From UHGV virus genome UHGV-1541059: 47,311 nt of DNA; one strand, written 5' to 3'. The translations under genes and the position numbers were made by a program. Positions within the stretch are counted from its first letter, which is position 1. The number at the start of each line of letters is the position of its first letter. The notes beneath the pieces are model-generated. The model saw only the letters and a program-made list of their open reading frames with translations, was not told the origin of the DNA and did not search any database. Below are positions 5,354-43,949 of the stretch, piece after piece. Origin of the DNA: a virus.

Positions 5354-5371
5354 TATGGTATAGCCTCCGGT

Positions 5372-6490
5372 TTACAAAATGGAATATTCAGGGTAATAAA
5401 CAAAGCGCCCGATCTCCCCGTGATCAGGACTGTAAATTATTACCGCCGCCAGCCGCCGCGACCGCCAGCCGCCATTCGTTGAATAAGCGTCTTTGCCAGC
5501 TAACGTGCCGTGGTACTCAACAACGCCCAACGATGATTCAATCAGCCGTTGGTGATGCCAGTGTCCACAATGAGCGTAAACAGACGACGACTTGCCGAAA
5601 TCCTCCCGCCAGTCAGAAACGCAGGCAGAAAGTAAATTTTCTGGCTTTTTGATAGTGTGCCCGTGGTGGTAAGCAAGAAATGTTTTGCCGTACTGTGTGT
5701 GATGGACGATAGCAGGTGACACATCAACCGTCACACGCGGTTCATCTTCGTAAAAAGCCGCCAGCGCAGCACGTAGCCAGATCATACCTGATTGGTCGTG
5801 ATTACCGGATAATACCTGGATCTCGACATCCTTATGATTTAGTAACATCTTCCCGACCGCACGCCGGACCGACCGGATCGCCACATAAACCAGTTTTGCG
5901 TAGCGTGAATCACAATCTAAAACGTGATTACTTGATGGCGTCACTGGTAACAGGCCGTCAGTGTGAAGCACATCACCGCCGAGAAGCAAAACAGCCTTTT
6001 CAGACATTGGCGCAGCGCCTACCGCGTAGTCGAAGAAGTCATTTAGCACGCGTTCAGCGATCCCGGTGTCGTAGCTCTCACCGCATTCAGCTTTATGAGC
6101 AAGCGCCCCGATATGCAGATCGAATACCGGATAAAGGGCCAGGCTTTTTTGAAAATCAATTTCCGGCACTGGCACGGCCTCCGCGCGGGGTATTTCTTCC
6201 GTGAAGGCGTCACAAGCAGATTGCATTAGCATTTCCATTTCATCGCGGTCACGGGCTGTTTTAATCCAGCTCATAATCACATTGCCATCCTTATCGACGA
6301 GCAATGACTCAGCATTGACGCCAAAACCCGGTGCGCGGCGCGTGGATATTAAACCGCGTTTCGCCAACCGTGCGCCCAGGCGTTCGACGTTGCGTTTTGC
6401 CATGCCATATTTTTCTGCGATCTGTTTATACGTCAGACCGTTATTATGTTCAGCGATTAACTGTTCATCGCTGATCTTTCTTTGTGACAT
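5372..6490 (-). CDS. Protein with N-terminal HTH fused to a calcineurin-like metallophosphoesterase domain
   Basis: HTH LTYKQIAEKYGMAKRNVERL; phosphoesterase motifs DLH, GGDVLHTDG, GNHD, HCGHWHH; GGAGG RBS. Confidence 0.6.
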   Translation of the reverse strand: MSQRKISDEQLIAEHNNGLTYKQIAEKYGMAKRNVERLGARLAKRGLISTRRAPGFGVNAESLLVDKDGNVIMSWIKTARDRDEMEMLMQSACDAFTEEIPRAEAVPVPEIDFQKSLALYPVFDLHIGALAHKAECGESYDTGIAERVLNDFFDYAVGAAPMSEKAVLLLGGDVLHTDGLLPVTPSSNHVLDCDSRYAKLVYVAIRSVRRAVGKMLLNHKDVEIQVLSGNHDQSGMIWLRAALAAFYEDEPRVTVDVSPAIVHHTQYGKTFLAYHHGHTIKKPENLLSACVSDWREDFGKSSSVYAHCGHWHHQRLIESSLGVVEYHGTLAGKDAYSTNGGWRSRRLAAVIIYSPDHGEIGRFVYYPEYSIL

Positions 6491-6651
6491 AACGTTAATT
6501 CCTCCGGTTTACAGAATGTATATTTATTTTCCGTAAAACGCGCTACAACGCAAAAACCCACCGCGTAACCCACTTGTAAGGGTGCAGTGTCTTTTTTGCG
6601 CCAGAAGCGCAATCAGGTGGCTAATTTTCGATTTTTAAAGTAGAAGGGTAG

Positions 6652-6753
6652 TTATGGATTAACTTGTAGATACAAGCCGCCGAACAAGGCGACGTTAACA
6701 GCGATAGCCATCGCGATCGCGAAAGCCAGGGCGAACATGCGTTTACCGTTCAT
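6652..6753 (-). CDS. Candidate 33-aa hydrophobic peptide (MNGKRMFALAFAIAMAIAVNVALFGGLYLQVNP)
   Basis: AGAGG RBS about 9 nt upstream of ATG, inside an otherwise non-coding 396-bp gap of the replication operon. Confidence 0.3.
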   Translation of the reverse strand: MNGKRMFALAFAIAMAIAVNVALFGGLYLQVNP

Positions 6754-6886
6754 AGCTAAATCCTCTCTGAAACGCTCCATAACGAGCTAATCGCAAAAAG
6801 GTAAGCAAGTGTAGCACCCCATGCGATTTAGCTCGCTGATGAGGTTGTTTTGTGGGTAATTTGGGATTTTTGCGGATCGTGATTGG

Positions 6887-7939
6887 TCAAAGAACGCCAG
6901 CGCGCGTATCACGTAGCGTTTTTGGTTTAAGCAGAAAATCAAGTGTCGCAGTGAAGCCATTGCCGAAGTAAAAATCTGAAGCCGTGTTTTTGAACGTTTC
7001 GAAGTAGGTGACAAAGCCGTTAATGCTTTTGTCTTTCAGGTAGTCAGTGAACGCATAGATCTTGCGTTCAAGATCCCGATCCAGTTCGGCAGGTGGTAAC
7101 AGGCCGTCAAACGTGCTGTTAAATGCTTCCACCACGTCGGCAGCGTTTACAGTAGCTGATAGCTTGCGCCATTGTTCAGCATCAGCCAAATACCCATCAA
7201 ACTTAGTTACCCGGCAAATGTTGATAGGCTTAGGTACTCCACCACGGCTACGCCATTGGGTTAAAGCCCACTCAATCACTAATGTGATCTCATCCTCCGT
7301 ATACGCTTTACGTGTTTTTGTTTCTGTCAGTAGTTCTACGAATGGCTTAGCATCACGACATTTGCATCCTGCCTTGTCGTTGTAGAAGGCAAGGCAACGC
7401 AATGCCGCTTCGTTTACGCCATCCTGATTGACCATTTTTTGTTCATTTTCGACAATACACGAAGTGTATATATCTTTTTCTCTTTCTTTTTCTACTTCTA
7501 ATTCTAATTCATGACCCTTTCCTGACCCGGTCATGACCCTATCATGACCTTTTTGTGTTGGATTGATTAACTTTTCTAATTTTAATTGCTCCTTCGCTGT
7601 GTTTATGGCGGCCCTGTAAGCGCTTTTAGAAGTCATTGATTGGTCCAGCCTTTTCAATAACTTTAAACAAGTTATGTGGCCTTGAGAACATTCAAACAAA
7701 CCAATTTCGATGAAGTATTTCATCATTTCTTCTATACGTTTTTCAGTAGATCCGACGTTTCGCGCAATTATTCTTGCGTCATGTCGTAGGTCAAAAGTTA
7801 GATTGTGCTGATCTACGTCATAAGTTATTAGTTCTAGGCAATACCAATAAAGCCCGTACCCTTCCAGGCCATAATCTAATAAAACGTTTTGAAGTTTTTC
7901 ATCGCGGTTCGCATCGCTATCATGCTTAAACCACTTCAT
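6887..7939 (-). CDS. Phage replication initiation / replisome organizer protein
   Basis: N-terminus MKWFKHDSDANRDEKLQNVLLDYGLEGYGLYWYCLEL typical of phage replisome-organizer N-terminal domain; GGAGG RBS; upstream of DnaB. Confidence 0.65.
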   Translation of the reverse strand: MKWFKHDSDANRDEKLQNVLLDYGLEGYGLYWYCLELITYDVDQHNLTFDLRHDARIIARNVGSTEKRIEEMMKYFIEIGLFECSQGHITCLKLLKRLDQSMTSKSAYRAAINTAKEQLKLEKLINPTQKGHDRVMTGSGKGHELELEVEKEREKDIYTSCIVENEQKMVNQDGVNEAALRCLAFYNDKAGCKCRDAKPFVELLTETKTRKAYTEDEITLVIEWALTQWRSRGGVPKPINICRVTKFDGYLADAEQWRKLSATVNAADVVEAFNSTFDGLLPPAELDRDLERKIYAFTDYLKDKSINGFVTYFETFKNTASDFYFGNGFTATLDFLLKPKTLRDTRAGVL

Positions 7940-7942
7940 AGA

Positions 7943-8197
7943 TCATTCCTCCGGCAATGCAATATCATAAATGTCGCCGTATTCGTCAGCGCGTTTAATG
8001 AATCCTTTGCGGATCAATGAATTTAATGCGTCAACAGTAGTATGCAGTGGCAGTTCGCACACTTTTGCGATCTCTTCGCGTGAAGCATGTGCGCGGCCTT
8101 TGTTGTCTGCCTTTTCTGCAAACGCAATTAAGACAAGTTTTTGGATCGGGCTGTTAAGTTTTACGTTCCATGCTTCATTCATCATGTGCATACTCAT
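7943..8197 (-). CDS. Small winged-HTH DNA-binding protein, first gene of leftward operon (Cro-like position)
   Basis: LVLIAFAEKADNKG...ASREEIAKVCELPLHTTVDALNSLIRKGFI resembles the HTH_36 fold; AGGAG RBS. Confidence 0.55.
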   Translation of the reverse strand: MSMHMMNEAWNVKLNSPIQKLVLIAFAEKADNKGRAHASREEIAKVCELPLHTTVDALNSLIRKGFIKRADEYGDIYDIALPEE

Positions 8198-8306
8198 CTT
8201 GTTTTTCTCCTATGGTTAGAGTGAACGCGCGGGCGGGCATCCCATTAGCATTAGATAGCAGTGACTGACCGCTCAACAGATCCCGCCGTTGCGTGATATT
8301 TGTTTT

Positions 8307-8339
8307 TCGCTTCGCAGCGACACCGGATTTTTAAAGAGC
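8307..8339 (-). promoter_or_regulatory. nutR-like element (boxA-like GCTCTTTAAAAA plus GNRA-loop hairpin) on the leftward transcript
   Basis: Minus strand reads GCTCTTTAAAAATCCGGTG then hairpin TCGCT-GCGA-AGCGA; lies between divergent promoter region and first leftward gene. Confidence 0.35.
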
Positions 8340-8417
8340 TTAAGGTAAGTGCCTTTTTGTGCCTTCCGTTATCTTTTTCCTTGCGTCTTTGCAAGTATGG
8401 CCTTACCTTGTCTGCAA

Positions 8418-8430
8418 GTTTACAAAATGG
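8418..8430 (+). promoter_or_regulatory. Copy of recurrent motif GTTTACAAAATGG in the divergent cI / leftward-operon control region
   Basis: Exact 13-mer; candidate promoter hexamers on both strands nearby. Confidence 0.4.
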
Positions 8431-8503
8431 AATTTTAAGATCAAGGCTTAAAATACACGTTTTGTGACTTGCATCAAACTTTTTGAGGTTATAGGGTAGC
8501 GAC

Positions 8504-9151
8504 ATGAAAACAAAATGGTATGACTTAGCAAAGCAGCTCATGCGGGCGCAGGGCATGAGTCAGGATTCACTCGCAGATCTCATGGGGATAACTAAAGGCG
8601 GCCTGTCACACTGGCTTAACGGTCGCCGCGAGCCAAATCTTGAAGATATTGCGCGGATTATGCGGGCGCTTGGGCGTCGTCAGTTCACTGTTACACATGA
8701 TGGTATGGTCATTGATGATTCTGTTTCTAATACACTTCAGGCCGCACCGCCGCGTGATTTAGGTAGTTACCCGGTTATTGACTGGAAGGACACAGTAAAC
8801 AATATGGATGACACAAGGCGATCAGCATTACCACACGTTACGACTAGCGTTATTTGTTCAGATGATAGTTACTGGCTGGTTGCCAAAGGTGAATCAATGA
8901 ACGCGCCGCAGGGGTTAAGCATCCCGGCGGGGACGATGATACTTGTTGACCCGCACGCGCCAGCTATTGACGGCAAACTGGTTATAGCCCAGCTTGAGGA
9001 AGGGCAGATACCGACGTTTAAACAGTTGATTATTGATGGAGGTCAAAGGCTTTTACGTTCGCTCAATCCTCTGTATCCGCCAATCCCTATGAATCCAGAA
9101 TCAAAAATTATAGGCGTGGTGGTTGATGCGAAGATCGTAAACCTGCCATAA
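8504..9151 (+). CDS. cI: CI-like repressor (HTH plus S24 LexA-type autopeptidase domain)
   Basis: N-terminal HTH (MSQDSLADLMGITKGGLSHWLNG), C-terminal S24 motifs (GESM ... DGKLVIAQL ... FKQL). Confidence 0.85.
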   Translation: MKTKWYDLAKQLMRAQGMSQDSLADLMGITKGGLSHWLNGRREPNLEDIARIMRALGRRQFTVTHDGMVIDDSVSNTLQAAPPRDLGSYPVIDWKDTVNNMDDTRRSALPHVTTSVICSDDSYWLVAKGESMNAPQGLSIPAGTMILVDPHAPAIDGKLVIAQLEEGQIPTFKQLIIDGGQRLLRSLNPLYPPIPMNPESKIIGVVVDAKIVNLP

Positions 9152-9156
9152 ACATT

Positions 9157-9182
9157 AGCCGCCGGATGGCGGCTTTTCTTTG
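9157..9182 (+). terminator. Intrinsic terminator after cI
   Basis: 7-bp GC stem (agccgcc-ggat-ggcggct) followed by TTTTCTTT. Confidence 0.6.
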
Positions 9183-9260
9183 CCTGGAAAACGCCAAAAC
9201 GTAAACAGAAAACGTTATTTATTGTTTAAATATCAATGACATATAAAATATTTTAAAAAA

Positions 9261-9303
9261 GTATACAAAATGGATTGACTCGATGTTTTACGGGGCGTAT
9301 ATT
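9261..9303 (+). promoter_or_regulatory. Strong sigma70 promoter (pL-like) with the 13-bp motif abutting the -35
   Basis: GTATACAAAATGG-a-TTGACT-17 bp-TATATT. Confidence 0.55.
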
Positions 9304-9557
9304 GCGAGTCAAAGGAAGGGCGCAGGTAACAAAAGCAACTTCCTGGCACTTTAAAAATCAGGCTTAACACCTTGTCAACCGTGGAGTAACTCCCCGATTG
9401 GGGACCGAAAGCGGCACTGATAACAAGGCGCATGGGGTGTTTAAAGCGTTACATCCCCCACGAAACCGCACGCAAGGCGACGAGTCAGCTTGCTTGGAGT
9501 GAGCAAGGTCACGCCGGGAACGGCGATGATTGCGGGATTAGTTGAAAGATGTTAAGC

Positions 9558-9595
9558 CGCTCATTAACAATCTGGTCAGCCGCTGGAAGTGCGGC
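9558..9595 (+). promoter_or_regulatory. nutL-like site (boxA-like CGCTCATTAACAA plus boxB-like hairpin)
   Basis: boxA-like at 9558-9570, 8-nt spacer, hairpin GCCGC-TGGAAGT-GCGGC at 9579-9595, about 55 nt upstream of the N-like gene. Confidence 0.4.
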
Positions 9596-9651
9596 AATTA
9601 ACGAAGATGATTTTTTATTAAGTATCATCAAGGATATACGGAGATCAGATT

Positions 9652-9942
9652 ATGAGCGTTACAATTATATATGGTAAATGTGATAGCAAAATGAATGCCA
9701 GGGAACGCAGAAGGATAAAAAGAGAAAACGAAAGAAAATCATCACCTGCAATCAATAAAACAGACAATGTGGATAAAGCTATTCGATTTGCAAACGAGGA
9801 AAGATGCAAACCAAATAGCATTAAAGAACGTCGCAAAGGATCAGTAAAATGGTATACGGAAAATGAAAGCGGCAGCTACTACCACGCAACGCAACCACGA
9901 CATTTAGGGGAAAAACCCCTGGATAAAGTCCGCTATCATTAA
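9652..9942 (+). CDS. N-like transcription antiterminator (P22 gene 24-like, arginine-rich motif)
   Basis: MSVTIIYGK...NARERRRIKRENERK resembles the P22 gp24 N-terminus and ARM; position after pL/nut. Confidence 0.55.
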   Translation: MSVTIIYGKCDSKMNARERRRIKRENERKSSPAINKTDNVDKAIRFANEERCKPNSIKERRKGSVKWYTENESGSYYHATQPRHLGEKPLDKVRYH

Positions 9943-9972
9943 TACAAAATGTAAACATCCGGAGATGACATT

Positions 9973-10092
9973 ATGGTTATTCAGGCGCTTCAATTCAAAC
10001 TGGCAGTAGCGGAAATGCTTCACGATGCCGAAATGTGGAGCGCCGCGAATAAAGCCTTATACATAGTGTTAACAGCACGGGAGATTAAATAG
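9973..10092 (+). CDS. Hypothetical 39-aa protein
   Basis: GGAG RBS; stop overlaps the erf GTG start. Confidence 0.3.
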   Translation: MVIQALQFKLAVAEMLHDAEMWSAANKALYIVLTAREIK

Positions 10093-10733
10093 TGAAAACA
10101 GAGTTACATAAAAAGCTATGGACGATTCAGCAAACGCTGAACGCGCCGAAAAATCAGCGTAATAATTTTGGTGGATATAATTACAGGTCGGCGGAGGATA
10201 TTTTAGAGGCGGTTAAACCACTGCTTCAAAATATCACGCTGACTGTTAGTGATGAAATTGTCCTGATCGGCAATCGCTATTATGTGAAAGCAACGGCGAC
10301 GCTAAGCGACGGTGAAGACGTAATAGCGGTAACTGCTTATGCCAGGGAGGAAGAGAGCAAGAAGGGTATGGACGCCAGCCAGCTAACAGGAGCAACATCA
10401 AGTTACGCGCGTAAATATGCTTTGAACGGTTTATTCTGTATAGATGATGCTCGCGATCCTGATACTGATGCTTACGCGAAGCAGACAGGCCAGCAGCCGC
10501 GACAACAGAAAAACCCACCAAAACAACAACCGCAGCAGAAGAAAGCGCCGCCAAATCCTGATGAAGTATTAGCACGTTTCTGTGATGCAGCAGCGAAAGC
10601 GCAGGACGCTAACAAGCTGCGTGAAATATTTGGCAAATGCTGGAAATTACTACCGGAAGGATCGGAGCATCGAATCAAGGCAAAAGATGTTTATGACATC
10701 CGGGTAGCAGAGCTTAACGGGGAGATGGGTTAA
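10092..10733 (+). CDS. erf: Erf single-strand annealing recombinase
   Basis: LNAPKNQ...FGGYNYRSAEDILEAVKPLL...IGNRYYVKATATLSDGE...KKGMDASQLTGATSSYARKYALNGLF matches P22 Erf as recalled; GTG start. Confidence 0.85.
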   Translation: MKTELHKKLWTIQQTLNAPKNQRNNFGGYNYRSAEDILEAVKPLLQNITLTVSDEIVLIGNRYYVKATATLSDGEDVIAVTAYAREEESKKGMDASQLTGATSSYARKYALNGLFCIDDARDPDTDAYAKQTGQQPRQQKNPPKQQPQQKKAPPNPDEVLARFCDAAAKAQDANKLREIFGKCWKLLPEGSEHRIKAKDVYDIRVAELNGEMG

Positions 10734-11149: not shown

Positions 11150-11158
11150 TTCAATAGG

Positions 11159-13320: not shown

Positions 13321-13418
13321 CCGAGTGATTCCGATTACATAAATATACATTATGTATTGTGATCGCATATCCGTTTTGTAAGCCAAAATCAAAAGGTTTA
13401 CGGTGCGGAGGAAGCAAA

Positions 13419-15617: not shown

Positions 15618-16101
15618 CAGGTTATTAGCCTGCGTTTATGTCGCCGTTTTCGTGATCATCAATCTTATTGTTAACCATTGCGGCCCGTGGGTAATTCCGA
15701 TCACCACGGTAGCCGCCGTGTGTGTCAATATGATGATCCGTGACTTCCTGTTATATGACGGCGGCTTGAGATGGTCGGCTACAACATGCGCCGCCGCTGG
15801 CGCAATCACTGTACTGATAAATTACGACGCCGGAATGGTGGCGATCGCGTCATTTGTCGCGGTTGTTTCCGGTGCGCTTATTTCTGGCGGCGTTTACCGG
15901 GTTTTGCCTGGTGACTTTGATTCTAAACGTTGGCCTGCAAATATAGCGTCCGCCATAGGTGATGCGTTAATTTTCCCGACGCTATCGTTTATGGCATTTA
16001 TGCCGGAAATATCAGCTATGCAATTCATCTCAAAAATGGCAGCGGTAACGGTGATTACTATCATCATGCGCCGCTATTTCACGTTTGAGGGTAGAAAATG
16101 A
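15598..16101 (+). CDS. Polytopic inner-membrane protein; weak resemblance to VUT/YhhQ-type transporters
   Basis: 4-5 predicted TM helices; start at MERVTIDRLL; sits between the two methyltransferase genes. Confidence 0.45.
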   Translation: MERVTIDRLLACVYVAVFVIINLIVNHCGPWVIPITTVAAVCVNMMIRDFLLYDGGLRWSATTCAAAGAITVLINYDAGMVAIASFVAVVSGALISGGVYRVLPGDFDSKRWPANIASAIGDALIFPTLSFMAFMPEISAMQFISKMAAVTVITIIMRRYFTFEGRK

Positions 16102-16863: not shown

Positions 16864-16944
16864 GTTTACAAAATGGCGTCATTGTGTGATGAATGTCACA
16901 TAATGGCGCTTTGCACCTTGTTAGCACGTATCCATTTTGTATAC
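16864..16944. promoter_or_regulatory. Control region upstream of ninF/ninG: inverted pair of the 13-bp motif flanking a CRP-like palindrome
   Basis: GTTTACAAAATGG (16864-16876), TGTGATGAATGTCACA (16885-16900), reverse-complement motif CCATTTTGTATAC (16932-16944). Confidence 0.4.
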
Positions 16945-17021
16945 TTCAAGCAAACAAAATGCTCTTTAAAAATCCGGCAGCGCTGAAATGCGTAGAAATC
17001 ACCTGAAAAGGAGAGAGCATT

Positions 17022-22537: not shown

Positions 22538-22575
22538 GTATACAAAATGGCATTGTTTTGGCAGTGCCATTTTGT
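22538..22575. promoter_or_regulatory. Inverted repeat built from the 13-bp motif in a 100-bp intergenic gap
   Basis: GTATACAAAATGGCA-ttgttttggcag-TGCCATTTTGT, followed by TTATAAAG. Confidence 0.4.
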
Positions 22576-22616
22576 TATAAAGAAGCTGAAGAGAGAACGA
22601 TGCGGAGGGTAGAAAA

Positions 22617-22889
22617 ATGAAACGCTGGATTAACGAAGAAACAGAGTCCCGCTTCAATGCAATTTGGGATCTGATTGAAAAAGAGGACGGCGTTTCTAGT
22701 CCCTACCTGAACAATCTTGAGTTCCACTATGTAGAAGCGATGAACGCAGAGCATGACCACGAAGGCGGTGCTGATGAATTCGCTAAAAAATACGGCTTCG
22801 ATGATGCAAACCATATGATTAACAACGTGGTGATGCAGGCAGAGGAAGACTACGAATGCAAATCACTTGAATTCGCACGCATGGCATAA
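22617..22889 (+). CDS. Hypothetical acidic protein (90 aa)
   Basis: ORF with GGAGGG RBS. Confidence 0.45.
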   Translation: MKRWINEETESRFNAIWDLIEKEDGVSSPYLNNLEFHYVEAMNAEHDHEGGADEFAKKYGFDDANHMINNVVMQAEEDYECKSLEFARMA

Positions 22890-35038: not shown

Positions 35039-35056
35039 GTATGTGGAGCAAACAAA

Positions 35057-35443
35057 ATGGTCACTACAGAACAGGCGCGGGAATATCTTGAAAGCCAGGG
35101 TATTGACCTGCCAGACATTATCTTATCTTTGCTGGTGGAACAGGCAAATAGCGTTAATGAATGCCTTGATGCTAACTATCCGGCCTCCACCGCAACATTG
35201 ATTCAGCTTTATCTGATCGGGCTGTTAGGACTCACACAGGCGAATAAATACGTTTCATCACACACAGGTCCGAACGGTGCAAGCCAGTCCTACCGCTATG
35301 TTGATTTCAATAAAAAATGGAAGGCGGCTTGTTCGTTGCTCCGCTCGATTGATAAACATAATTGCACAGCAGAACTGATTCCCGCAGATCCTGAAGCCAC
35401 CGCACATGCCGGACTATGGATCGGTAAGAGTGGGAGGATGTAA
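35057..35443 (+). CDS. Putative head-tail connector / head completion protein
   Basis: Start at MVTTEQAREY (track ORF 35021 begins inside the terminator); position. Confidence 0.45.
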   Translation: MVTTEQAREYLESQGIDLPDIILSLLVEQANSVNECLDANYPASTATLIQLYLIGLLGLTQANKYVSSHTGPNGASQSYRYVDFNKKWKAACSLLRSIDKHNCTAELIPADPEATAHAGLWIGKSGRM

Positions 35444-38053: not shown

Positions 38054-38473
38054 TTATTTGATTCTAACAATATCAATAAAACCGTTACCCAAATCTACAA
38101 TTGCGTGATTTTTTGCACCCGCGCCGCCTTCATTAAAAATTCTTTCCGCGAAAGCAACTTTATTTGCCTTACACTCGTTTGCTATCCTGTTTTTTATTTC
38201 GCTATTATTTTCAAAGACTGCGCCTACAGCGGCCTCGTTTACAAGGCCATAATTAAACCAACGAGCATAAACTGGTTTACCTTCAAATTTTTTATCAATT
38301 GCCTTAAAAAGAATTGCTGGCGCGGCAGGTTCTTTTTTGATCATGTCGTGATATGCGGCTACATGGTTTGCCACTTCTTCACAGTTAATGCTTATGGCCT
38401 CGTTAGCGTTCGCGTTAAATGCGAGTGCGGCAATCACAGTAAGTGCCATTTTTGCTAACCGTTTCATAATCAA
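38054..38473 (-). CDS. Secreted protein, reverse-oriented moron in tail module
   Basis: N-terminal signal peptide MKRLAKMALTVIAALAFNANA; two Cys in mature part; opposite strand to flanking tail genes. Confidence 0.6.
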   Translation of the reverse strand: MIMKRLAKMALTVIAALAFNANANEAISINCEEVANHVAAYHDMIKKEPAAPAILFKAIDKKFEGKPVYARWFNYGLVNEAAVGAVFENNSEIKNRIANECKANKVAFAERIFNEGGAGAKNHAIVDLGNGFIDIVRIK

Positions 38474-38535
38474 CTCCTACCGCTTATTCTAATTTGCTAA
38501 ATGCTTCATTTAACTTAGTTATACACGCATATTGT

Positions 38536-38619
38536 TTATTTTTTAAGTGCTTTTAACATTTCTTCGATGAAGTCCGCATAGCGTTCATGTTCATTGGGGC
38601 GGTAGTTTACGTTTTTCAT
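38536..38619 (-). CDS. 27-aa peptide (MKNVNYRPNEHERYADFIEEMLKALKK) upstream of the secreted-protein gene
   Basis: Strong GGAGG RBS 7-8 nt upstream of ATG on minus strand. Confidence 0.35.
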   Translation of the reverse strand: MKNVNYRPNEHERYADFIEEMLKALKK

Positions 38620-38696
38620 TTTCTTATCCTCCTTCTCTCCCCCCCGGTTAATCCGGCCTTTTAAATCCCTTTGCTCTATCCCTTTCCTTTAGCCTC

Positions 38697-38740
38697 TTTA
38701 TACAAAATGGAGTCGTTACAGTAAAGCCATTTTGTATAAA
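38697..38740. promoter_or_regulatory. Perfect inverted repeat of the recurrent motif; candidate divergent promoters for tape measure (+) and the moron (-)
   Basis: TTTATACAAAATGG-16 nt-CCATTTTGTATAAA; on each strand motif, 1 nt, hexamer, 17 nt, TATAAA. Confidence 0.45.
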
Positions 38741-38777
38741 ATAGAGGCATAGATCACATTTTGTATGAGGTTAAATC

Positions 38778-41120
38778 ATGGCTACCAGTGTAGGTACAAT
38801 TTATTACGAAGTTGATGCAAAAACTGGTCAACTTCTCGTTGCACAACGACAGGCAGACCAGGCCTTTGACCGTATAGAGCGCGGCGCAAAACAGGCTGAC
38901 CGCCAGGTAAACACCCTGAAAACATCCATCAAGGCACTGACCAGGGTTATCCATTTGCTAATTGCTGCGGAGGCTGTGCGCCAATTCATGGATATGGCGG
39001 AGCAAGCAAAAATGCTTCGCGTAAAAATCAAAATGCTTACGGGCGATGCGGAGTCCGCCGGACGGGTTTTTGATGGCCTGAAAGCAATATCAAAAGAAAC
39101 AGGCCAAAGCATGAAGGATACCGGGGATCTGTGGCAAGGCTTAGCTATCTCACTGAAGAACACGTCCGCCACTGAAGGGCAATTGCTTAACCTGGTAGGT
39201 ACGATTCAGAAAATGGGGGCGTTGGGCGGCGCGTCAGCGGAGCAGATGTCAAACTCAATGCGTCAATTCCGTCAGTCTATCGACGGTGGCGTGTTGCGTG
39301 CTGAAGAATTCAACAGCCTGTTAGAAAACACCCCGACCATCGTACAGACAATGGCACGCCAGATGGGGTTATCAATGGGCCAATTCCGCGCCGAAATGCT
39401 GGACGGTAAGATCACGGCAGAAAGGATGGTTAACGCAATCCAGGCGGCTACGCAGGAAACAAACGAGAAGTTTGCGCAGTTGCCGCGCACATCCGGCATG
39501 GCCCTGAATGAGCTTAAAGTCGAGGTTATGGGACTTGTTGAGCAATTGGATGATCTTTTCGGTGTATCCGATACGGTTGTTGCTGGTATCGATCTTGTAA
39601 CGAAAGGTGTTAAGGCTTTAGGTGAAGGCGCTGATTTCGCTAAAACCTGCTTTAACACCCTGAAGACGGCTGGTGGCGAATTCATCGACATGTTTGAAGA
39701 TGTCAGAATCAAGGCTGGCGAGGTAGCCGAGAAGATCATCGCAATGGTGACGCCAATCAAGGCACTAATGGATGCCTACAAATGGATGAAGGAGGTCGTA
39801 GGAGAGAAAACCGACGAATATAACAGCAACTACGAGAAGAAATACGGTAAGACTGTTGGCAAGGTCATGCAACTACAGGATGATCTGACCGCAGCAATCC
39901 AGGCTACAGAAGAAGCAAGGAAAAATGAACAGAATGCCGCCAATGACGGAGCGATTACCGGATTCGACAAGCCAGTAGACAAACCGAAAAAACAGAAAAA
40001 AGAGAAGAAATCTGAAGCTGATCGTCTTGGCGATAAAGGTATAAGCGTTTCTGACCAGTACAACAAAGACGCCGCCGCTATGCGCAAAGCGTTAGAGAAC
40101 GGCAAGGCCATTGATGCTGCATTCGCCCAGGGTAAAATCACTCTCCTTGAGTACCGCGCCGCGCAAAAAGGGATAGGTAAGGAACTGAAGGAAGAATTAG
40201 CGCAAATTCCGGTAGATGAATTGCGTGATAAATGGGCGCAAATAGTAAGCCCGATGGATCAGCTTAAAGGCGAGGTTGACCCTATTCAGCAGGCACAAAA
40301 TGAATGGGCCGTTCGTAAGCAAATGCTTATCGACCTGGGAGCTACCGAAGCGCAACAGAAACAGGAATTGTTAGCCTATGAGCAACAGATCCGCGATCTG
40401 AAGTGGGAGCAGTGGCAAGCGCAAAGCGACACTAACGGCCTGATCGGTGATTGCGTTAATGGCCTTAAAGGTGGTATGAGCAATGCACTTGTTGGCCTGT
40501 TAAACGGTACTCAATCATTAAGCGATGTTTTTGCTAACTTAGGTAGCAATATCCTCGGCAATATTGGTAGCAGACTTTCAGATATAGCCGCTGACTGGAT
40601 AGCAGATCAAATCATGATGGAGACACAAAGCAAGGCCACGCAAGCAAGTACAACGGCGGGCGCGGTAGCGGCGCAAGGCCAGATTGCTGCGGCGGCGGCC
40701 CCGGCGGCGGCGGCAACAGCGGCGTCAACTGGCGGCGCATGGGCTGCGGCTGGTTCTGCGGCACTCACTGCGATCATGTCGCTGGCTACGTCAATTTTCG
40801 GCGGTGGTCGCTTTAATGGTGGTAGCGTTATTGGTGGCAATATGTACCGCGTAGGGGAACACAACAGGCCGGAGCTATTCCAGACATCTAACGGAAATCA
40901 ATATATGATCCCAGGCGAGAATGGCAGGGTTATTCCTGGGCGTGATATTGGCGGTGGCGGCGGCATTAGTATGCCTGTCAATATCAACATTCAGACCACA
41001 AACGGATTTAGCGACGAAGACAGTCGCAGACTTGAGCAAACAATGGAACGTGTAGCAATGAAGATGATAACAAGGGAATCACAAAGACCTGGAGGAATAT
41101 TGCAACCGCGCCGCAAATAA
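38778..41120 (+). CDS. Tail tape measure protein
   Basis: 780 aa, coiled-coil rich, Ala/Gly-rich hydrophobic segment near C-terminus; position. Confidence 0.85.
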   Translation: MATSVGTIYYEVDAKTGQLLVAQRQADQAFDRIERGAKQADRQVNTLKTSIKALTRVIHLLIAAEAVRQFMDMAEQAKMLRVKIKMLTGDAESAGRVFDGLKAISKETGQSMKDTGDLWQGLAISLKNTSATEGQLLNLVGTIQKMGALGGASAEQMSNSMRQFRQSIDGGVLRAEEFNSLLENTPTIVQTMARQMGLSMGQFRAEMLDGKITAERMVNAIQAATQETNEKFAQLPRTSGMALNELKVEVMGLVEQLDDLFGVSDTVVAGIDLVTKGVKALGEGADFAKTCFNTLKTAGGEFIDMFEDVRIKAGEVAEKIIAMVTPIKALMDAYKWMKEVVGEKTDEYNSNYEKKYGKTVGKVMQLQDDLTAAIQATEEARKNEQNAANDGAITGFDKPVDKPKKQKKEKKSEADRLGDKGISVSDQYNKDAAAMRKALENGKAIDAAFAQGKITLLEYRAAQKGIGKELKEELAQIPVDELRDKWAQIVSPMDQLKGEVDPIQQAQNEWAVRKQMLIDLGATEAQQKQELLAYEQQIRDLKWEQWQAQSDTNGLIGDCVNGLKGGMSNALVGLLNGTQSLSDVFANLGSNILGNIGSRLSDIAADWIADQIMMETQSKATQASTTAGAVAAQGQIAAAAAPAAAATAASTGGAWAAAGSAALTAIMSLATSIFGGGRFNGGSVIGGNMYRVGEHNRPELFQTSNGNQYMIPGENGRVIPGRDIGGGGGISMPVNINIQTTNGFSDEDSRRLEQTMERVAMKMITRESQRPGGILQPRRK

Positions 41121-41126
41121 ACGAAA

Positions 41127-41156
41127 CCCCGGTACAATGCCGGGGTTATCTTTTAG
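41127..41156. terminator. Bidirectional intrinsic terminator after tape measure gene
   Basis: CCCCGG-tacaatg-CCGGGG followed by TTATCTTTTAGTT; also downstream of minus-strand gene 41153-41329. Confidence 0.6.
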
Positions 41157-41329
41157 TTATTCTCAAAACTTGTATATCCTCTTTCAATTTTCCCGCCTCT
41201 TACACTTCTTGCAAATACTGCATCATTATGTTTGAAAAATGGTTCAGTATATGTGTCTCCTTTACTATCCATCCATTTCACGATCCAGGCTATACGTTTT
41301 ACATTGCTTTTATTTGCCGGGTTTTTCAT
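41153..41329 (-). CDS. Hypothetical 58-aa protein (reverse-oriented cassette gene 3)
   Basis: GGAGGAAAATAAA-ATG on minus strand; MKNPANKSNVKRIAWIVKWMDSKGDTYTEPFF... Confidence 0.4.
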   Translation of the reverse strand: MKNPANKSNVKRIAWIVKWMDSKGDTYTEPFFKHNDAVFARSVRGGKIERGYTSFENN

Positions 41330-41447
41330 TTTATTTTCCTCCGCAAATTACAATCTTCCGTTTCTGGCTATATAGCTGCGAGAAAACATTACCAACCAAA
41401 TATTCCAGATCTCCCTCCAGGTGAATTTATCGTCCTCCATACCCACC

Positions 41448-41702
41448 TCACTTATGGCAACCGCGAACGCCAGACAATTCATTGAATTTATGGTGTTCAA
41501 CAATCACCCACTCTTTCAGATCCTGGCTATAGACTCGCCAGTCTAAATTGGCGCGGAAGGCGTAGCCGTAACCGTCTTTCAATTTTTTGGGTGACGCATT
41601 CTTGTTTAAAAACGCGTTCAAAAGTTCCTTTGCTTTTTTGACTACATGTCCCGGCGCGTTTTTCTGTGCTTTCAGATTTTTGTCAATCGCTACCAGTTTC
41701 AT
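41448..41702 (-). CDS. Hypothetical 84-aa basic protein (reverse-oriented cassette gene 2)
   Basis: GGGGTGAG RBS; ...GYGYAFRANLDWRVYSQDLKEWVIVEHHKFN... Confidence 0.5.
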   Translation of the reverse strand: MKLVAIDKNLKAQKNAPGHVVKKAKELLNAFLNKNASPKKLKDGYGYAFRANLDWRVYSQDLKEWVIVEHHKFNELSGVRGCHK

Positions 41703-41719
41703 AACTCACCCCATCATCC

Positions 41720-41875
41720 TTAGTTAAGTGCCTTCAGGAAGAAGTCCCGGTATTCATCTTCTTTTGCATTCATCATGAATTGACCGTATTTGAATGCGTC
41801 GTCGAAACCCTTAACGATTGCTATTTCCACTTGTTCGAATGCGTTGTTTAGCATTACCACTACATAGCGTTTCAT
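41720..41875 (-). CDS. Hypothetical 51-aa protein (reverse-oriented cassette gene 1)
   Basis: GGAGG RBS then ATG; MKRYVVVMLNNAFEQVEIAIVKGFDDAFKYGQ... Confidence 0.45.
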   Translation of the reverse strand: MKRYVVVMLNNAFEQVEIAIVKGFDDAFKYGQFMMNAKEDEYRDFFLKALN

Positions 41876-41946
41876 TTTGGGCCTCCTTCGTTGGTACTGC
41901 TTTTCTTCTTGCTTTCTGTATACATCTTGTTGCGAACTATGTGAAG

Positions 41947-41969
41947 CCATTTTGTAAACTAGCTATAAT
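41947..41969 (-). promoter_or_regulatory. Motif copy plus candidate promoter for the 41875-41153 minus-strand cassette
   Basis: Minus strand: GTTTACAAAATGG-c-TTCACA-17 nt-TATACA. Confidence 0.4.
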
Positions 41970-42043
41970 CATTGTGATGAAGATCTCATTTTTCGCGTAG
42001 AAGCGCGTAAATATATATACAAAATGTAACTTATGGGGGTTTT

Positions 42044-42397
42044 ATGCCGGAAGTTTTCAGATGGACGCCGCAAAGAAGCTACAGCGTGACCAGGGAGCCA
42101 AACGTATCTGTCATTAAACTTGGTGATGGGTATGAACAACGCCAGGCGAAAGGGATTAACACATTACTTGATAGTTACACCCTGGTTTTTAAAGGCAGTA
42201 GTGCAGGATGCGGCGATGGTGGGAATGTAGCGATCCAGGCGGAAGCATTCTTGAGGGCGCGCGGCGCTGTCGAGGCTTTTTACTGGTCGCCGTCGATGGA
42301 TAACGTGCAAAGGCTTTTTGTTTGCCGCCGATGGAGCATGACTAAAGACGGGTCTTTGTACACGCTAAACGCAACGTTTGAGCAGGTCGTCAGATGA
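42044..42397 (+). CDS. M: Minor tail protein M
   Basis: FRW...GDGYEQR...FEQVV matches lambda gpM as recalled; 117 aa. Confidence 0.75.
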   Translation: MPEVFRWTPQRSYSVTREPNVSVIKLGDGYEQRQAKGINTLLDSYTLVFKGSSAGCGDGGNVAIQAEAFLRARGAVEAFYWSPSMDNVQRLFVCRRWSMTKDGSLYTLNATFEQVVR

Positions 42398-42594
42398 TGG
42401 AGGTTAATATGTATGGTATTTGTGTAGTGGACCGCACTGGCGCTTTTACATTGTTTGACGACTATGAAATCAACGATCTTACTGTAAAGGCTGATAATGG
42501 CGAGATCTGGTATCTTCATGATGTTGGTGACGGGTATGTCGGATGCAGATCGAGAGAGGGTAGGGAAGTTTTATTTTTACTTGATGGCGTATAA
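42394..42594 (+). CDS. Hypothetical 66-aa protein coupled to M
   Basis: ATGA overlap with M stop; followed by terminator. Confidence 0.4.
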   Translation: MMEVNMYGICVVDRTGAFTLFDDYEINDLTVKADNGEIWYLHDVGDGYVGCRSREGREVLFLLDGV

Positions 42595-42600
42595 ACACGA

Positions 42601-42628
42601 CCCCGCGCGAAGCGGGGTTATTATTATT
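42601..42628. terminator. Intrinsic terminator (bidirectional) between the M operon and the reverse cassette
   Basis: CCCCGCG-cgaa-GCGGGG followed by TTATTATTATT. Confidence 0.6.
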
Positions 42629-42740
42629 CCATTTCCATTAATGCTATATTTTCCGCTATCGTTTTCCAGTCCAGATTTACAGCATGAACACCAAATACTA
42701 TCAATCCCATTGCGATTAGTGCTAAAACTTCGATTTTCAT
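42624..42740 (-). CDS. 38-aa membrane peptide (MKIEVLALIAMGLIVFGVHAVNLDWKTIAENIALMEME)
   Basis: GAGG RBS on minus strand; hydrophobic helix; last gene of reverse cassette. Confidence 0.35.
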   Translation of the reverse strand: MKIEVLALIAMGLIVFGVHAVNLDWKTIAENIALMEME

Positions 42741-42831
42741 AATCAACCTCACTTAATTAAGAAAGGCATAAACGATGGCAATCGCGCCAGCCACTACCAA
42801 AACATTTCGATCACTTCGTCTACTTTATTGA

Positions 42832-43035
42832 TTAAGGTAACTCCACTTCGTTAAATGTAACAAGCACCCCTTGATTTTCTTTATTTATAATTATGAAGGC
42901 ATTAATTGAAGGCAGACATCTTTCCACGCGGTAAACGTCACCAATATCTAAACTGTAATATTCTGTTAATTCTCTATTGTTCCCTTTAGCAAAACCCGTA
43001 AACCTAACCATTTTTTGACCGTCGTACTTTAACAT
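42832..43035 (-). CDS. Hypothetical 67-aa protein (reverse cassette)
   Basis: Minus-strand ORF coupled to upstream gene. Confidence 0.45.
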   Translation of the reverse strand: MLKYDGQKMVRFTGFAKGNNRELTEYYSLDIGDVYRVERCLPSINAFIIINKENQGVLVTFNEVELP

Positions 43036-43043
43036 ATACAGTC

Positions 43044-43292
43044 CTATAGGTTATCACGCAGATAATTAACGCCTTTGTCAGTGACGAATGAGTGATTAAC
43101 CTGGTTTTCATCCGTCATGATGATGAATAACTTTTCCTGTAGGTATTTCGCTTTTGGGTACAGCGTTAAACAGACCTGGTACAGTATCCCGCGCTCAATC
43201 AGCAAATCAATAAATTCGTGCTCATGATAACCGACGAGGCGGGCGGCTTGTTTCAACGTGTACACATAATCGCCGTGATTGCGCCGCCCCAT
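43044..43292 (-). CDS. Hypothetical 82-aa protein, possible HTH (reverse cassette)
   Basis: YTLKQAARLVGYHEHEFIDLLIERGIL resembles a DNA-binding helix-turn-helix. Confidence 0.45.
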   Translation of the reverse strand: MGRRNHGDYVYTLKQAARLVGYHEHEFIDLLIERGILYQVCLTLYPKAKYLQEKLFIIMTDENQVNHSFVTDKGVNYLRDNL

Positions 43293-43301
43293 GTTGCCGC
43301 C

Positions 43302-43652
43302 TTATTTATCGAATGCGCCCAGGTTATCTATGCAGAAGTCTTTCGCAGCTTTTTCGTATTCGCGTTTTGCTTGCGGATCGTCTGCCGGGAAACCTTTTGC
43401 GTGTATTTCACCAGGGCAAGACTGATCCATAGAGTCTGCAAATTCAACATTGACGTTAAAGTTAATATCTTTCGGGTTCATCTCTTCCACCTTATCCGGC
43501 ACTTGCACCGGAGTAATATCAAAATCACGAGCGTTAGACCAACAGCGAAGTAACTCACGACCTTCATCACGCGCTGCGACGTATGTGTCGAACAGGCCCA
43601 TGCGCTCCCATTCACATTTATCAGTCCATATTTCTAAACTATATTTTTGCAT
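43302..43652 (-). CDS. Hypothetical 116-aa acidic protein (reverse cassette)
   Basis: Minus-strand ORF; no recognisable motif. Confidence 0.5.
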   Translation of the reverse strand: MQKYSLEIWTDKCEWERMGLFDTYVAARDEGRELLRCWSNARDFDITPVQVPDKVEEMNPKDINFNVNVEFADSMDQSCPGEIHAKGFPADDPQAKREYEKAAKDFCIDNLGAFDK

Positions 43653-43664
43653 TTTGTTAAACCA

Positions 43665-43820
43665 TCATTTGACAGGTTCGAGTCTGTATCCCAAAACTCT
43701 TTCGTCTTCAGCGAGTAAGAGCGCGTCAGTAAGTGCATCGCCTTCATCTTTATACAGGGCAACAGTCATTTCCCTGCCGTCTGTCAGAAATACCTTCAAC
43801 CTCCACACCTTATCAGCCAT
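43665..43820 (-). CDS. Hypothetical 51-aa protein, first gene of reverse cassette
   Basis: GGAGGTGTGAG-ATG on minus strand; motif copy GTTAACAAAATGG immediately upstream (43835-43847); track ORF extends to 43895. Confidence 0.45.
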   Translation of the reverse strand: MADKVWRLKVFLTDGREMTVALYKDEGDALTDALLLAEDERVLGYRLEPVK

Positions 43821-43949
43821 CTCACACCTCCGCGCCATTTTGTTAACTGTGCTTCCGTTTGAGTAAAATATACATATTGTATAAACCGTGATCAATCCAT
43901 TATGGTATGATTTAGCGTGACGCAGATCACAAAATCAGAAGGTGAGAAA

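Follow-up and report, generated by a model that had tools for sequence, protein, structure and literature searches.

Dispersed repressor sites are known from the C1 operators of phage P1, the gp71 'stoperators' of mycobacteriophage L5 and the conserved inverted repeats of phiC31. In these phages, one immunity repressor has many genome-wide sites with an asymmetric consensus, some at promoters and some in short gaps within operons, and the stoperators are oriented with transcription. Lambda CI at OR2 activates pRM from a position near -42, and phi29 p4 activates or represses depending on the strength of the -35 hexamer. The C2/CI proteins of the Salmonella phages L and ST64T are HTH and S24 repressors with 15-mer operators, adjacent ones lying 25-26 bp apart, one over a lytic -10 and another abutting the -35 of the repressor promoter. 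Immunity conferred by Rep021 has been shown experimentally (PMC11893012), and the operators of this repressor are undescribed in the literature.

The window analysed here, the whole stretch of 47,311 nucleotides, belongs to the mEp-immI prophages (mEp021-like), with a backbone unrelated to the P22-like and lambda-like phages. On mainly comparative evidence, a motif recurring in it is most likely the site bound by the prophage's own CI-type repressor. That repressor resembles the HTH and S24 protein of L and ST64T (about 54% identity in the N-terminal domain), as do the 15-mer type, the 25-26 bp spacing and the placement over a lytic -10 and beside the repressor promoter -35. Whereas ST64T has such sites at OL/OR only, the window holds about two dozen candidates at eight or nine loci, late region included, and most copies are half-symmetric, unlike those of L and ST64T. 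It is a known kind of element, unusually dispersed, with about eight or nine places versus two classical control regions. One immunity repressor, many genome-wide sites, an asymmetric consensus and positions both at promoters and in short intra-operon gaps recall P1, L5 and phiC31, but the repressor families are unrelated, many sites here form 25-bp two-operator units over promoters, and their orientation relative to transcription is mixed, unlike that of the stoperators. As with lambda OR2 and phi29 p4, the centre of the upstream operator falls near -41 or -42 and the same site type stands beside strong and weak -35 hexamers; unlike there, the -10 is in most cases covered by a second operator.

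Enrichment of the Motif in the Window

We counted 13 exact matches to ACAAAATGG on both strands of the window, against 0.85 expected, and none of 100 dinucleotide shuffles reached 13 copies. Against an order-3 background of the window, ACAAAATG and TACAAAATG ranked first among 8- and 9-mers. An earlier note on this DNA had claimed an enriched motif with at least 12 copies, which we confirmed: all 12 listed positions carry it, the copy placed at 5373 actually lying at 5374, and one copy, at 8510, had been missed. Its statement that most copies carry GTWTAC also held, as this flank is present on 11 of the 13 copies of the 9-mer, and the same 11 keep their positions in related phages. Exact GTWTACAAAATGG stands at 5370, 8418, 9261, 16864, 16932(-), 22538 and 41947(-), and with one mismatch at 38698, 38727(-) and 43835(-); the flank of the 22567(-) copy reads TATAAC. 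The two unflanked copies lie in cI codons 3-5 (8510-8518, +; M-K-T-K-W) and across a start codon (35052-35060, +), and both are probably coincidental, since they lack the flank and two such copies match the chance expectation. In the 42.6 kb of E. coli host DNA used for the background check that the note had proposed, the 9-mer occurred once and the 13-mer was not found.

The Candidate Operator and Its Proposed Repressor

The 13-mer quite probably represents the conserved part, two-thirds, of a candidate 15-bp operator, TWTAC-N5-GKWWW, for the CI-type repressor Rep021, in which TWTAC would be the consensus half-site. The copies listed earlier have the centre AAAAT and a degenerate other half (GGnnn), and about six further sites of the window are fully symmetric (...TGTATA). 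The cI-type repressor gene (8504-9151, +) encodes a 215-aa orthologue of Rep021, which we propose as the motif-binding protein. Its product contains the Pfam domains HTH_3 and Peptidase_S24, its closest solved structure is that of lambda repressor (3BDN), and over the N-terminal 71 aa it shares 100% identity with the mEp021, mEp010 and mEp013 repressors. We infer that Rep021 binds the candidate sites and silences the extra ones in the lysogen.

The family of this N-terminal domain has members in otherwise ordinary lambdoid prophages of Enterobacter, Serratia, Tatumella and Citrobacter. A canonical three-site OR was found in all four prophages and two OL sites in three of the four, and all these sites are 15-mers of the form TATAC-N5-GTATA (OL AATACAAAACGGATT and OR AATACAAAATGGAAC in the Citrobacter prophage). 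The same site type is present in phages L and ST64T (OL = AATACAAAATGTACT), and a negative-control prophage, with a homologous C-terminal domain and a P22-C2-type N-terminal domain, contained none of these sites. Using a matrix built from the four other-genera prophages only, we obtained seven sites scoring 14 bits or more across the window, versus 0.40 expected, four of which are motif copies of the earlier note or close variants. The same matrix gave no sites in the 42.6 kb of E. coli DNA, and only five matches of at least 12 bits in ST64T, all of them at OL/OR and none elsewhere in its 40.7 kb.

In a sister group with only 55% identity in cI, the recognition helix is identical and the motif stands at the same places. 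A relative with a different repressor specificity was not found among those searched. Conservation of the candidate sites only slightly exceeds that of the flanking sequence (92.4% vs 89.6%), and symmetric and asymmetric forms interchange at orthologous positions: the 38699 site reads TATACAAAATGGAGT here and symmetric TATACAAAATGTATT in mEp010 and mEp021, and orthologues of the 6508 site keep the half-sites while the centre flips. The protein at the Cro position was excluded as the binder, being replaced by a different protein in the sister group while the motif stays.

Among 110 offsets tested, the best offset for a partner operator was +25 bp, in agreement with the 25-26 bp spacing in the other phages, and the inverted pairs with 16-nt spacers are adjacent candidate operators 25 bp apart. 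Two operators often form a unit, 25 bp centre to centre, on which two repressor dimers could bind cooperatively, as at lambda OR1-OR2. The first operator of such a unit would abut or overlap the -35, and the strong half of the second (GTATAC or GTAAAC, then T) would supply the -10 hexamer, so that bound repressor would occlude the promoter. The position of the second operator over the -10 favours repression by promoter occlusion over pure activation. We propose repressor units at the leftward promoter (leading to nutL), the rightward promoter (leading to nutR1) and a predicted third promoter (before nutR2), and further ones in an intergenic gap at 13.3 kb, at pair B (22.5 kb) and at the promoters of all three reverse-oriented cassettes. 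All transcription start sites used here are predicted.

Sites at the Early Promoters

In the immunity region, the strong half of an OR1-like candidate operator, TTTACAAAATGGAAT (8419-8433, +), forms the -10 TAAACT (minus strand, 8419-8414) of a putative leftward early promoter, TTGATC-16-TAAACT, with nutL downstream at 8339-8323. This promoter scores 8/12, under the scan threshold, and the divergent relative L035 has the same layout with TTGAAC-16-TAAACT. An OR2-like candidate operator, TACACGTTTTGTGAC (8454-8468, -; inverted repeat I1; 9.1 bits with the other-genera matrix), abuts the -35 TTGCAT (8469-8474) of a pRM-like promoter, with its centre at about -42, and its right half GTGAC resembles GTGTC in the middle operator of the Enterobacter, Serratia and Tatumella prophages. 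The -10 of the pRM-like promoter, TAGGGT (8491-8496), places the predicted start at the cI ATG, so the message would be leaderless. Directly past the cI terminator lies a distal operator-like site, TTTACGTTTTGGCGT (minus strand, 9191-9205), which is kept in all relatives.

The near-consensus promoter TTGACT-17-TATATT that the earlier note had described beside the 9261 copy as pL was found as stated, and is the rightward early promoter (9275-9303, +). The candidate operator TATACAAAATGGATT (9262-9276, +; 16.4 bits with the other-genera matrix; invariant in five genomes) covers its first two -35 bases, with a centre at about -41, and is almost the same as the OL site of the Citrobacter prophage. 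The candidate operator TTTACGGGGCGTATA (9287-9301), 25 bp away, has two consensus half-sites and a GC-rich centre, and covers the spacer and -10. Past the promoter follow the boxA-like nutR1 (9346-9362) and the N-like gene (9652-9942). The strongest site at this promoter stands at about -41, an activating position in lambda, and repression would depend on the second operator.

Intercistronic Sites and Pairs A and B

The sequence TTTACAAAATGGAAT recurs at 5371-5385 (+), across the stop codon of gene 5372-6490(-) and immediately ahead of the helicase ribosome-binding site; mEp010 and mEp021 have HNH endonuclease genes inserted next to this site. The symmetric site TTTACAGAATGTATA (6508-6522; 14.4 bits) immediately precedes the ribosome-binding site of gene 5372-6490(-), and a half-matching 15-mer (6523-6537) abuts it. 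The segment of about 25 bp described earlier as duplicated at 5364-5388 and 6501-6525 is real, and the label 'phosphoesterase' given to gene 5372-6490 has no Pfam support. Another site, AATACAAAATGTAAA (9941-9955, +; 16.8 bits; invariant in five genomes), is located at the stop codon of the N-like gene, just ahead of the next ribosome-binding site, and its L035 equivalent is TATACAAAACGTATA; upstream of the erf gene lies TATACATAGTGTTAA (10058-10072). An intergenic gap of the rightward early operon contains a two-operator unit (13344-13382) composed of TATACATTATGTATT (13344-13358; 19.9 bits) and TATCCGTTTTGTAAG (13368-13382; 9.3 bits), 24 bp apart, which in relatives overlaps TTGTGA-16-TAAACT and has its L035 equivalent at 16023 and 16048.

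The left copy of pair A, TTTACAAAATGGCGT (16865-16879, +), directly follows a cytosine-methyltransferase-like gene. The right copy, TATCCATTTTGTATA (16929-16943, -; 16.3 bits; invariant in five genomes), covers the spacer and -10 of a predicted promoter, TTGTTA-16-TATACT (16918-16945), just upstream of nutR2, whose 17-mer (16961-16977) is identical to that of nutL. Pair B, TATACAAAATGGCAT and GTGCCATTTTGTTAT (22539-22578; 25 bp apart), lies upstream of gene 22617-22889 and was found in some relatives only.

Late Region and Reverse-Oriented Cassettes

All three reverse-oriented cassettes sit inside the tail-gene region. Pair C (38699-38713 and 38724-38738, 25 bp apart), with a third, weaker site at 38753-38767, occupies the region between a reverse-oriented gene (38054-38473) and the tape-measure gene (38778-41120). 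Two promoter-like sequences diverge here, and each has its -10 under one operator of the pair. A unit upstream of reverse cassette b (a small protein, a ParE-like toxin and a small protein) consists of a strong site (41944-41958, -) and a weak partner 25 bp away (41919-41933), whose GTATA half supplies the -10 of TTCACA-17-TATACA. The arrangement of motif, 1 nt, hexamer and 17 nt that the earlier note had described is readable, with TATAnn, at 38698(+), 38727(-) and 41947(-), but the hexamers fall below the scan threshold, which several cassette promoters miss. The site TATACAAAATGTAAC (42016-42030, +; 15.9 bits) is separated by 13 nt from the tail-gene ATG at 42044 and is degenerate in mEp010, mEp021 and mEp013. 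Reverse cassette c, with a KilAC/ANT-domain gene among its members, has its control region at 43832-43908 (-). Here the perfect palindrome TATACATATTGTATA (43869-43883; 19.9 bits) lies over the spacer and -10 of TTGATC-17-TATATT (43895-43867), a second site (43832-43846) falls at roughly +13 to +27 and closely precedes the ribosome-binding site, and a weak site occupies 43894-43908.

Alternative Readings of the Motif

The earlier note had proposed a phage-specific, promoter-proximal element. A protein-binding site linking early promoters and reverse cassettes stands, with the repressor option, whereas the UP-like option fails, since the motif has invariant G and C positions and is also found overlapping -10 hexamers and past a predicted start site. 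An activator site or UP-like element, where the early and cassette promoters would be stimulated by the RNA polymerase alpha subunit or by a protein bound near -43, is a rather unlikely reading; were that protein CI, the cassettes would be on in the lysogen, like lambda pRM. Activation would suit the six copies in the fixed arrangement with hexamer and TATAnn, the poor -35 hexamers of several promoters (GTCGTT, ACTGCC), typical of activator dependence, the operator centre at about -41 with the OR2-like site at about -42 of the cI promoter, and a further cluster upstream of an Lpp-like exclusion gene expected to be active in lysogens. However, the second operator of the same units lies over the -10, the cassette c promoter lies under a perfect palindrome followed by a site at about +19, and the rightward early promoter, whose -35 is near-consensus as it stands, has to be silenced if there is to be immunity; an UP element would need no invariant G/C and would not occur over a -10 or between cistrons, as at 5371, 6508 and 9941.

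Eleven copies have a single recognisable half-site, yet AAAATGG is almost invariant, a pattern not expected of a symmetric dimer, and a second reader or an uncommon way of binding could account for it. The asymmetric AAAATGG copies might be read by another protein, of phage or host origin, leaving only the symmetric sites to CI; candidates are the HTH_36 protein at the Cro position, a winged-helix protein (3296-3889) and a host factor, and CRP-like sequences accompany several units. We consider this improbable, because GG-type sites stand at ordinary OR/OL positions of the Citrobacter prophage, GG and GT forms swap at orthologous positions, the motif is unchanged where the Cro-position protein is replaced, and the site is absent from host DNA and from ST64T outside OL/OR. 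A role in RNA or recombination, with the inverted pairs as hairpins that stop or stabilise transcripts or the shared sequence as a homology patch for swapping accessory cassettes, is highly improbable. The pairs do fold at -20.5, -14.3 and -32.6 kcal/mol (z-scores near -5.5), the pair A hairpin is annotated as a predicted terminator in mEp021, and sites lie at the boundaries of variable cassettes and beside HNH insertions; but any inverted repeat folds automatically, no U-run follows any of the pairs, and most copies are single and mixed in orientation. Recombination would only follow from the operators being shared, and would leave the homology to the OR/OL of other phages unexplained. Measured between the 9-mer cores, the spacers of the inverted pairs, earlier reported as 12, 16 and about 55 bp, are 16, 16 and 55 nt.

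Enrichment of the motif in the prophage genome

The window is a prophage of the mEp-immI group, with 86-91% identity to the phages mEp021, mEp010, and mEp013 and 96-99.7% identity to MagusPhagus, and the motif copies are syntenic in all four. Phages of this group are reported to be common in the human gut, and plasmid-expressed Rep021, a CI-like repressor, blocks infection by all group members; its operator sequences are stated there as unknown (PMC11893012). Literature searches with the motif and operator strings returned nothing relevant, and no paper giving Rep021 operators was found.

The 9-mer core ACAAAATGG occurs 13 times on both strands, compared with a mean of 0.85 in dinucleotide-preserving shuffles, none of which (0/100) reached 13. 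Against an order-3 background, ACAAAATG was the most over-represented 8-mer in the window (21 versus 2.8 expected) and TACAAAATG the most over-represented 9-mer (13 versus 0.7 expected). The 13-mer GTWTACAAAATGG is present at seven exact sites and at three more with one mismatch. All twelve coordinates listed in an earlier note, made from the sequence alone, were right within one base, and one copy, at 8510, had been overlooked. This copy (cI codons 3-5) and that at 35052 (across a start codon) lack the flanks, and two flankless copies is the number expected by chance. Equal frequency in host DNA, which that note had set against a phage-specific element, was not observed: the control, 42.6 kb of E. 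coli sequence adjoining a near-identical prophage, contained one 9-mer and no 13-mer.

Several simpler identities were rejected. A coding or start-codon feature fits only the copies at 8510, 35052, and 43650, the ATG in the other copies opening ORFs of just 2-21 codons. When the motif was read as a promoter itself, with TWTACA as -35 or TATACA as -10, no consistent partner hexamer was found at 16-18 nt, and the consensus sequences of alternative sigma factors (sigma 32, 54, 28, and E) did not fit it. Another 8-mer, GCCGGACT, is also over-represented (8 copies versus about 0.75 expected; 2651, 12147, 16853, 25585, 29243, 30350, 35408, and 45254), mostly in coding regions and nearly always on the plus strand.

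The motif as part of a 15-bp candidate operator

Sequence comparison identifies the 13-mer as positions 0-12 of a 15-bp candidate operator (TWTAC-N5-GKWWW), in which the strong half is TWTAC, the centre AAAAT, and the weak half GGnnn. Symmetry was seen in about six sites (6508, 9287, 9941, 13344, 42016, and 43869), and 11 motif copies have one consensus half only. The two forms swap at orthologous positions: the site at 38699 is TATACAAAATGGAGT in the window and TATACAAAATGTATT in mEp010 and mEp021, and orthologues of the 6508 site retain the half-sites while the centre flips. This swapping ties the motif to palindromic operators. In the 11 copies with a single good half-site AAAATGG is nonetheless almost invariant, which is not obviously required by a symmetric dimer. 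Conservation was modestly higher in the sites than in their flanks (92.4% versus 89.6%).

The motif had been described as forming inverted pairs with variable spacers. Pairs B (22.5 kb) and C (38.7 kb) have exactly 16 nt between cores, and they are re-read here as two candidate operators 25 bp apart. When 110 offsets were tested, +25 proved the best for a partner site, and five two-operator units with a spacing of 24-25 bp are present in the window, matching the spacing in phage ST64T and in Citrobacter, Enterobacter, and Serratia prophages. A spacing of about 24-26 bp would allow pairwise cooperativity of the candidate operators. A scan of viral contigs for ACAAAATGG-N16-CCATTTTGT, intended for other phage groups with this pair geometry, returned only relatives and two chance coding matches.

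The candidate operators number about two dozen, and their orientation relative to surrounding genes is mixed. Strong sites outside OL/OR lie at 6.5, 9.9, 13.3, 16.9, 22.5, 38.7, 41.9-42.0, and 43.8 kb, and intercistronic ones at 5371, 6508, 9941, and 10058. When T follows it, the strong half (GTATAC or GTAAAC) also supplies a -10 hexamer (TATACT or TAAACT), a design that appears to recur at the predicted lytic promoter of the Serratia prophage.

Sites of the same type accompany homologous repressors in other phages

The candidate binder is the Rep021 orthologue encoded at 8504-9151(+). By Pfam it has HTH_3 and Peptidase_S24 domains (the latter a LexA-like C-terminal domain), its closest solved structure is the lambda repressor 3BDN, and the family signature of its N-terminal domain, obtained by homology search, is MK.KW..LAK...SQE.LAE..GITKG..SHWLN.RREP. 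We compared the genomic contexts of family members from Enterobacter, Serratia, Tatumella, and Citrobacter, all four of which come from ordinary lambdoid prophages with no other relationship to the window. The cro-cI gap of each contained three 15-mers TATAC-N5-GTATA (TATACATATCGTATT, TATACATATTGTGTC, and TATACAAAACGTATA in Serratia), and two further 15-mers, 25 bp apart, followed cI in all but the Tatumella prophage, where the region after the gene yielded none. The Citrobacter sites AATACAAAATGGAAC and AATACAAAACGGATT almost match TATACAAAATGGATT of the window. The C2 repressors of Salmonella phages L and ST64T, with an N-terminal domain about 54% identical to that of the window repressor, go together with the same site type at OR and OL; among these sites, AATACAAAATGTACT is present in two copies with a spacing of 25 bp. 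A control prophage that shares the repressor C-terminal domain and has a P22-C2-type N-terminal domain had none of these 15-mers and instead carried the P22-type ATTTAAG/CTTAAAT. Across the four genera, L, ST64T, and this one control, homologous repressors were thus accompanied by homologous operators and a different DNA-binding domain by none.

A symmetric position weight matrix was then trained solely on the four prophages of other genera, which contributed 19 OR/OL sites. The results showed seven sites of at least 14 bits in the window (6508, 9262, 9941, 13344, 16929, 42016, and 43869) versus 0.40 expected, with a maximum of three in 100 shuffles, and nine sites of at least 12 bits versus 1.36 expected. 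None of the seven fell in a gene body, all being in intergenic gaps or at gene ends, and four were the motif or close variants of it. In ST64T (40.7 kb, outside the training set), the only five matches of at least 12 bits were the two OL and three OR operators, and no sites were found in the 42.6 kb of host DNA, indicating that the matrix is specific. The same scan revealed the unusual trait of the window, namely that its sites are spread round the genome.

Candidate reader of the sites

Through a repressor of 55% identity, we found a sister group among Logan assemblies (L035-L038, contigs of 46-54 kb) that has the gene order of the window, an N-like protein of greater length (115 aa), and an integrase region unlike that of the window. 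In these genomes the motif is retained at the two early promoters and the helicase junction, following the N-like gene, at the position of pair A (16.9 kb), and upstream of an inserted Rha/ANT gene. Their repressor has a recognition helix and N-terminal arm identical to those of the window, whereas the gene at the Cro position (L035 9649-9876(-)) encodes a Cro-like HTH_3 protein unrelated to the HTH_36 protein of the window. Because the motif is shared while the Cro-position proteins differ, the repressor N-terminal domain is the only DNA-binding module common to all site-carrying genomes, which is strong circumstantial evidence, at the level of sequence, that this domain reads the sites. The evidence is circumstantial rather than proof since no relative with changed specificity was found: all 35 E. 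coli prophages with this backbone carry the same cI, searching species-representative genomes with the N-like protein yielded no relative with a different repressor, and the sister group does not discriminate, its recognition helix being identical despite the 55% repressor identity.

Candidate operators at the early promoters and nutR2

Four candidate operators lie around cI, two on the side of the leftward promoter (8419-8433 and 8454-8468) and two downstream of the gene (9262-9276 and 9287-9301), at the -35 or -10 of promoters whose starts are predicted from sequence. The copy at 8418-8430 faces a degenerate inverted copy (8457-8469) within a 27-nt imperfect inverted repeat. This putative layout resembles lambda OR, in that one operator would cover the -10 of the leftward lytic promoter and the second, at about -42, would adjoin the -35 of a weak promoter for cI. 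The predicted cI promoter (TTGCAT ... TAGGGT, 8469-8506) is lambda-pRM-like, with a start at or next to the ATG, which would give a leaderless cI mRNA; the same layout was seen in the sister group (L035) and the Serratia prophage. Judged by consensus, the leftward promoter is weak, as are several of the cassette promoters. On the rightward side, the near-consensus early promoter TTGACT-17-TATATT was found as described, at 9275-9303 with the motif one base upstream of the -35, and a second candidate operator, TTTACGGGGCGTATA (9287-9301), has consensus in both half-sites and lies 25 bp from the first, over the -10.

The first gene of the leftward early operon, 7943-8197(-), encodes an HTH_36/DnaD_N-like protein, not a Cro-type HTH_3 protein. 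The gene 5372-6490(-) had been called a phosphoesterase, a name left unconfirmed since it has no Pfam match at E<=0.001. A motif copy lies between a 372-aa gene and the helicase gene (5353-5390), and HNH/homing endonuclease genes are inserted exactly beside it in mEp010 (L001 5280-5870) and mEp021 (L002 6080-6583), an insert absent from the window and mEp013.

The copies of pair A (16864 and 16932) flank a 15-bp hairpin, annotated in mEp021 as a predicted terminator. A promoter-like sequence, TTGTTA-16-TATACT (16918-16945), takes its -10 from the right copy and lies directly upstream of the 17-mer GCTCTTTAAAAATCCGG, which also occurs at nutL (8323-8339, minus strand). At 16961-16977 this 17-mer is the boxA region of nutR2 described for the group. 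The predicted promoter immediately before nutR2 (16918-16977) means that the third nut site may be on a separate transcript, which may start after the hairpin (16876-16909). This suggests that the puzzling third nut site follows a repressor-controlled promoter of its own.

Reverse-oriented cassettes of the tail region

A motif copy upstream of every reverse-oriented cassette had been proposed, and it was seen for all three in the tail region (38054-38473, 41153-41875, and 42832-43820). The first encodes a secreted protein, cassette b a ParE-like toxin domain protein (41448-41702(-)), and cassette c a KilAC/ANT antirepressor-domain protein (43044-43292(-)). The promoter of cassette c, TTGATC-17-TATATT, is covered by the perfect palindrome TATACATATTGTATA (43869-43883), with the motif copy at about +19. 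These results suggest that the cassettes are connected to the immunity switch and are not free-standing morons. The first gene of each of cassettes b and c encodes a 51-aa protein without a family match, and an Arc-like repressor identity for them had no Pfam support. A further operator-like cluster was observed past the window end in the E. coli 09-00049 prophage (L048 3660-3790: ACCACATTTCGTATA; AATACATTTTGTATG, 17.9 bits; GATCACAAAATGG; TTAACATAATGG), between the tail-fibre gene and a reverse-oriented small gene positioned like the Lpp exclusion gene of the group.

A proposed dispersed operator system and its alternatives

The most far-reaching interpretation, which we consider rather unlikely, is that one lambda-like CI directly governs at least eight dispersed promoters instead of two: three early ones, one per nut site, and those of the reverse cassettes in the tail operon. 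Through half-symmetric operators at about -41, CI would shut down strong promoters and stimulate weak ones, and loops bridged by CI could bring many of the sites together.

In the two-operator units the candidate operators flank the -35 and overlie the -10, which makes repression in the lysogen the simplest expectation. On this view the phage would have several repressor-controlled promoters rather than two, one before each of the three nut sites and one per reverse-oriented cassette, and the single sites just upstream of RBSs (5371, 6508, 9941, and 10058) could act as roadblocks or looping anchors. Activation at some promoters is nevertheless retained as a live rival, because operators with their centre at about -41 may have an activating instead of a repressing role, and because the additional cluster is found upstream of the Lpp-like exclusion gene, a gene expected to function in lysogens. 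The earlier suggestion of an UP-like element is excluded: an UP element (alpha-CTD site) is an A/T-rich tract of loose sequence at -40 to -60 and lies only upstream of promoters, whereas the motif has an invariant C and GG, and copies of it also overlie -10 hexamers, lie at about +19 of a predicted promoter, and occur between cistrons. RNA hairpins formed by the pairs were set aside; the pairs do fold stably, but so would any inverted repeat, they have no U-runs, and most copies are single. Reading of the motif by a host factor is not supported, neither by host DNA nor by ST64T outside OL/OR.

The window shares with the CI/C2 systems of the phage L/ST64T type an HTH and S24 repressor adjacent to sites and operators at both early control regions, but the sites of those systems are confined to OL and OR. 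Like stoperator/P1-type systems, it has more than 10 dispersed sites (about two dozen candidates), including ones in short intra-operon gaps; unlike theirs, whose orientation follows transcription, its sites are mixed in orientation, and its lambda-CI-like HTH_3 and S24 repressor is not a member of the L5 gp71 or P1 C1 families. The dispersed layout resembles P1 C1 operators or L5 stoperators, but with a lambda-type repressor.

Operators of repressors are textbook elements, and phages L and ST64T already have the type described here. What is new is the assignment of candidate operators to Rep021, for which none was found in the literature searched, together with the half-symmetric operator form and the dispersed layout with a lambda-type repressor. 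As the candidate operators are proposed at base resolution, they are testable at once with the published Rep021 plasmid. A CI-governed promoter before each nut site, if true, would explain the need for a third one, and, together with cassettes linked to the immunity switch, it would make these phages a compact case of a genome-wide regulon under a lambda-type repressor.

CRP-like sequences in the window

The CRP-like sequence GTGA-N6-TCAC occurs five times in the window versus 0.34 expected (9499-9512, 16885-16900, 22517-28, 38750-38761(-), and 43917-43930). The copy between the two sites of pair A has a perfect TGTGA-N6-TCACA core and is conserved in relatives as GTGA-N6-TCAC; the predicted start of the promoter preceding nutR2 is about 61 bp downstream of it. 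Pairs B and C have a half-site, AAATGTGATCTA, equally far from their promoters.
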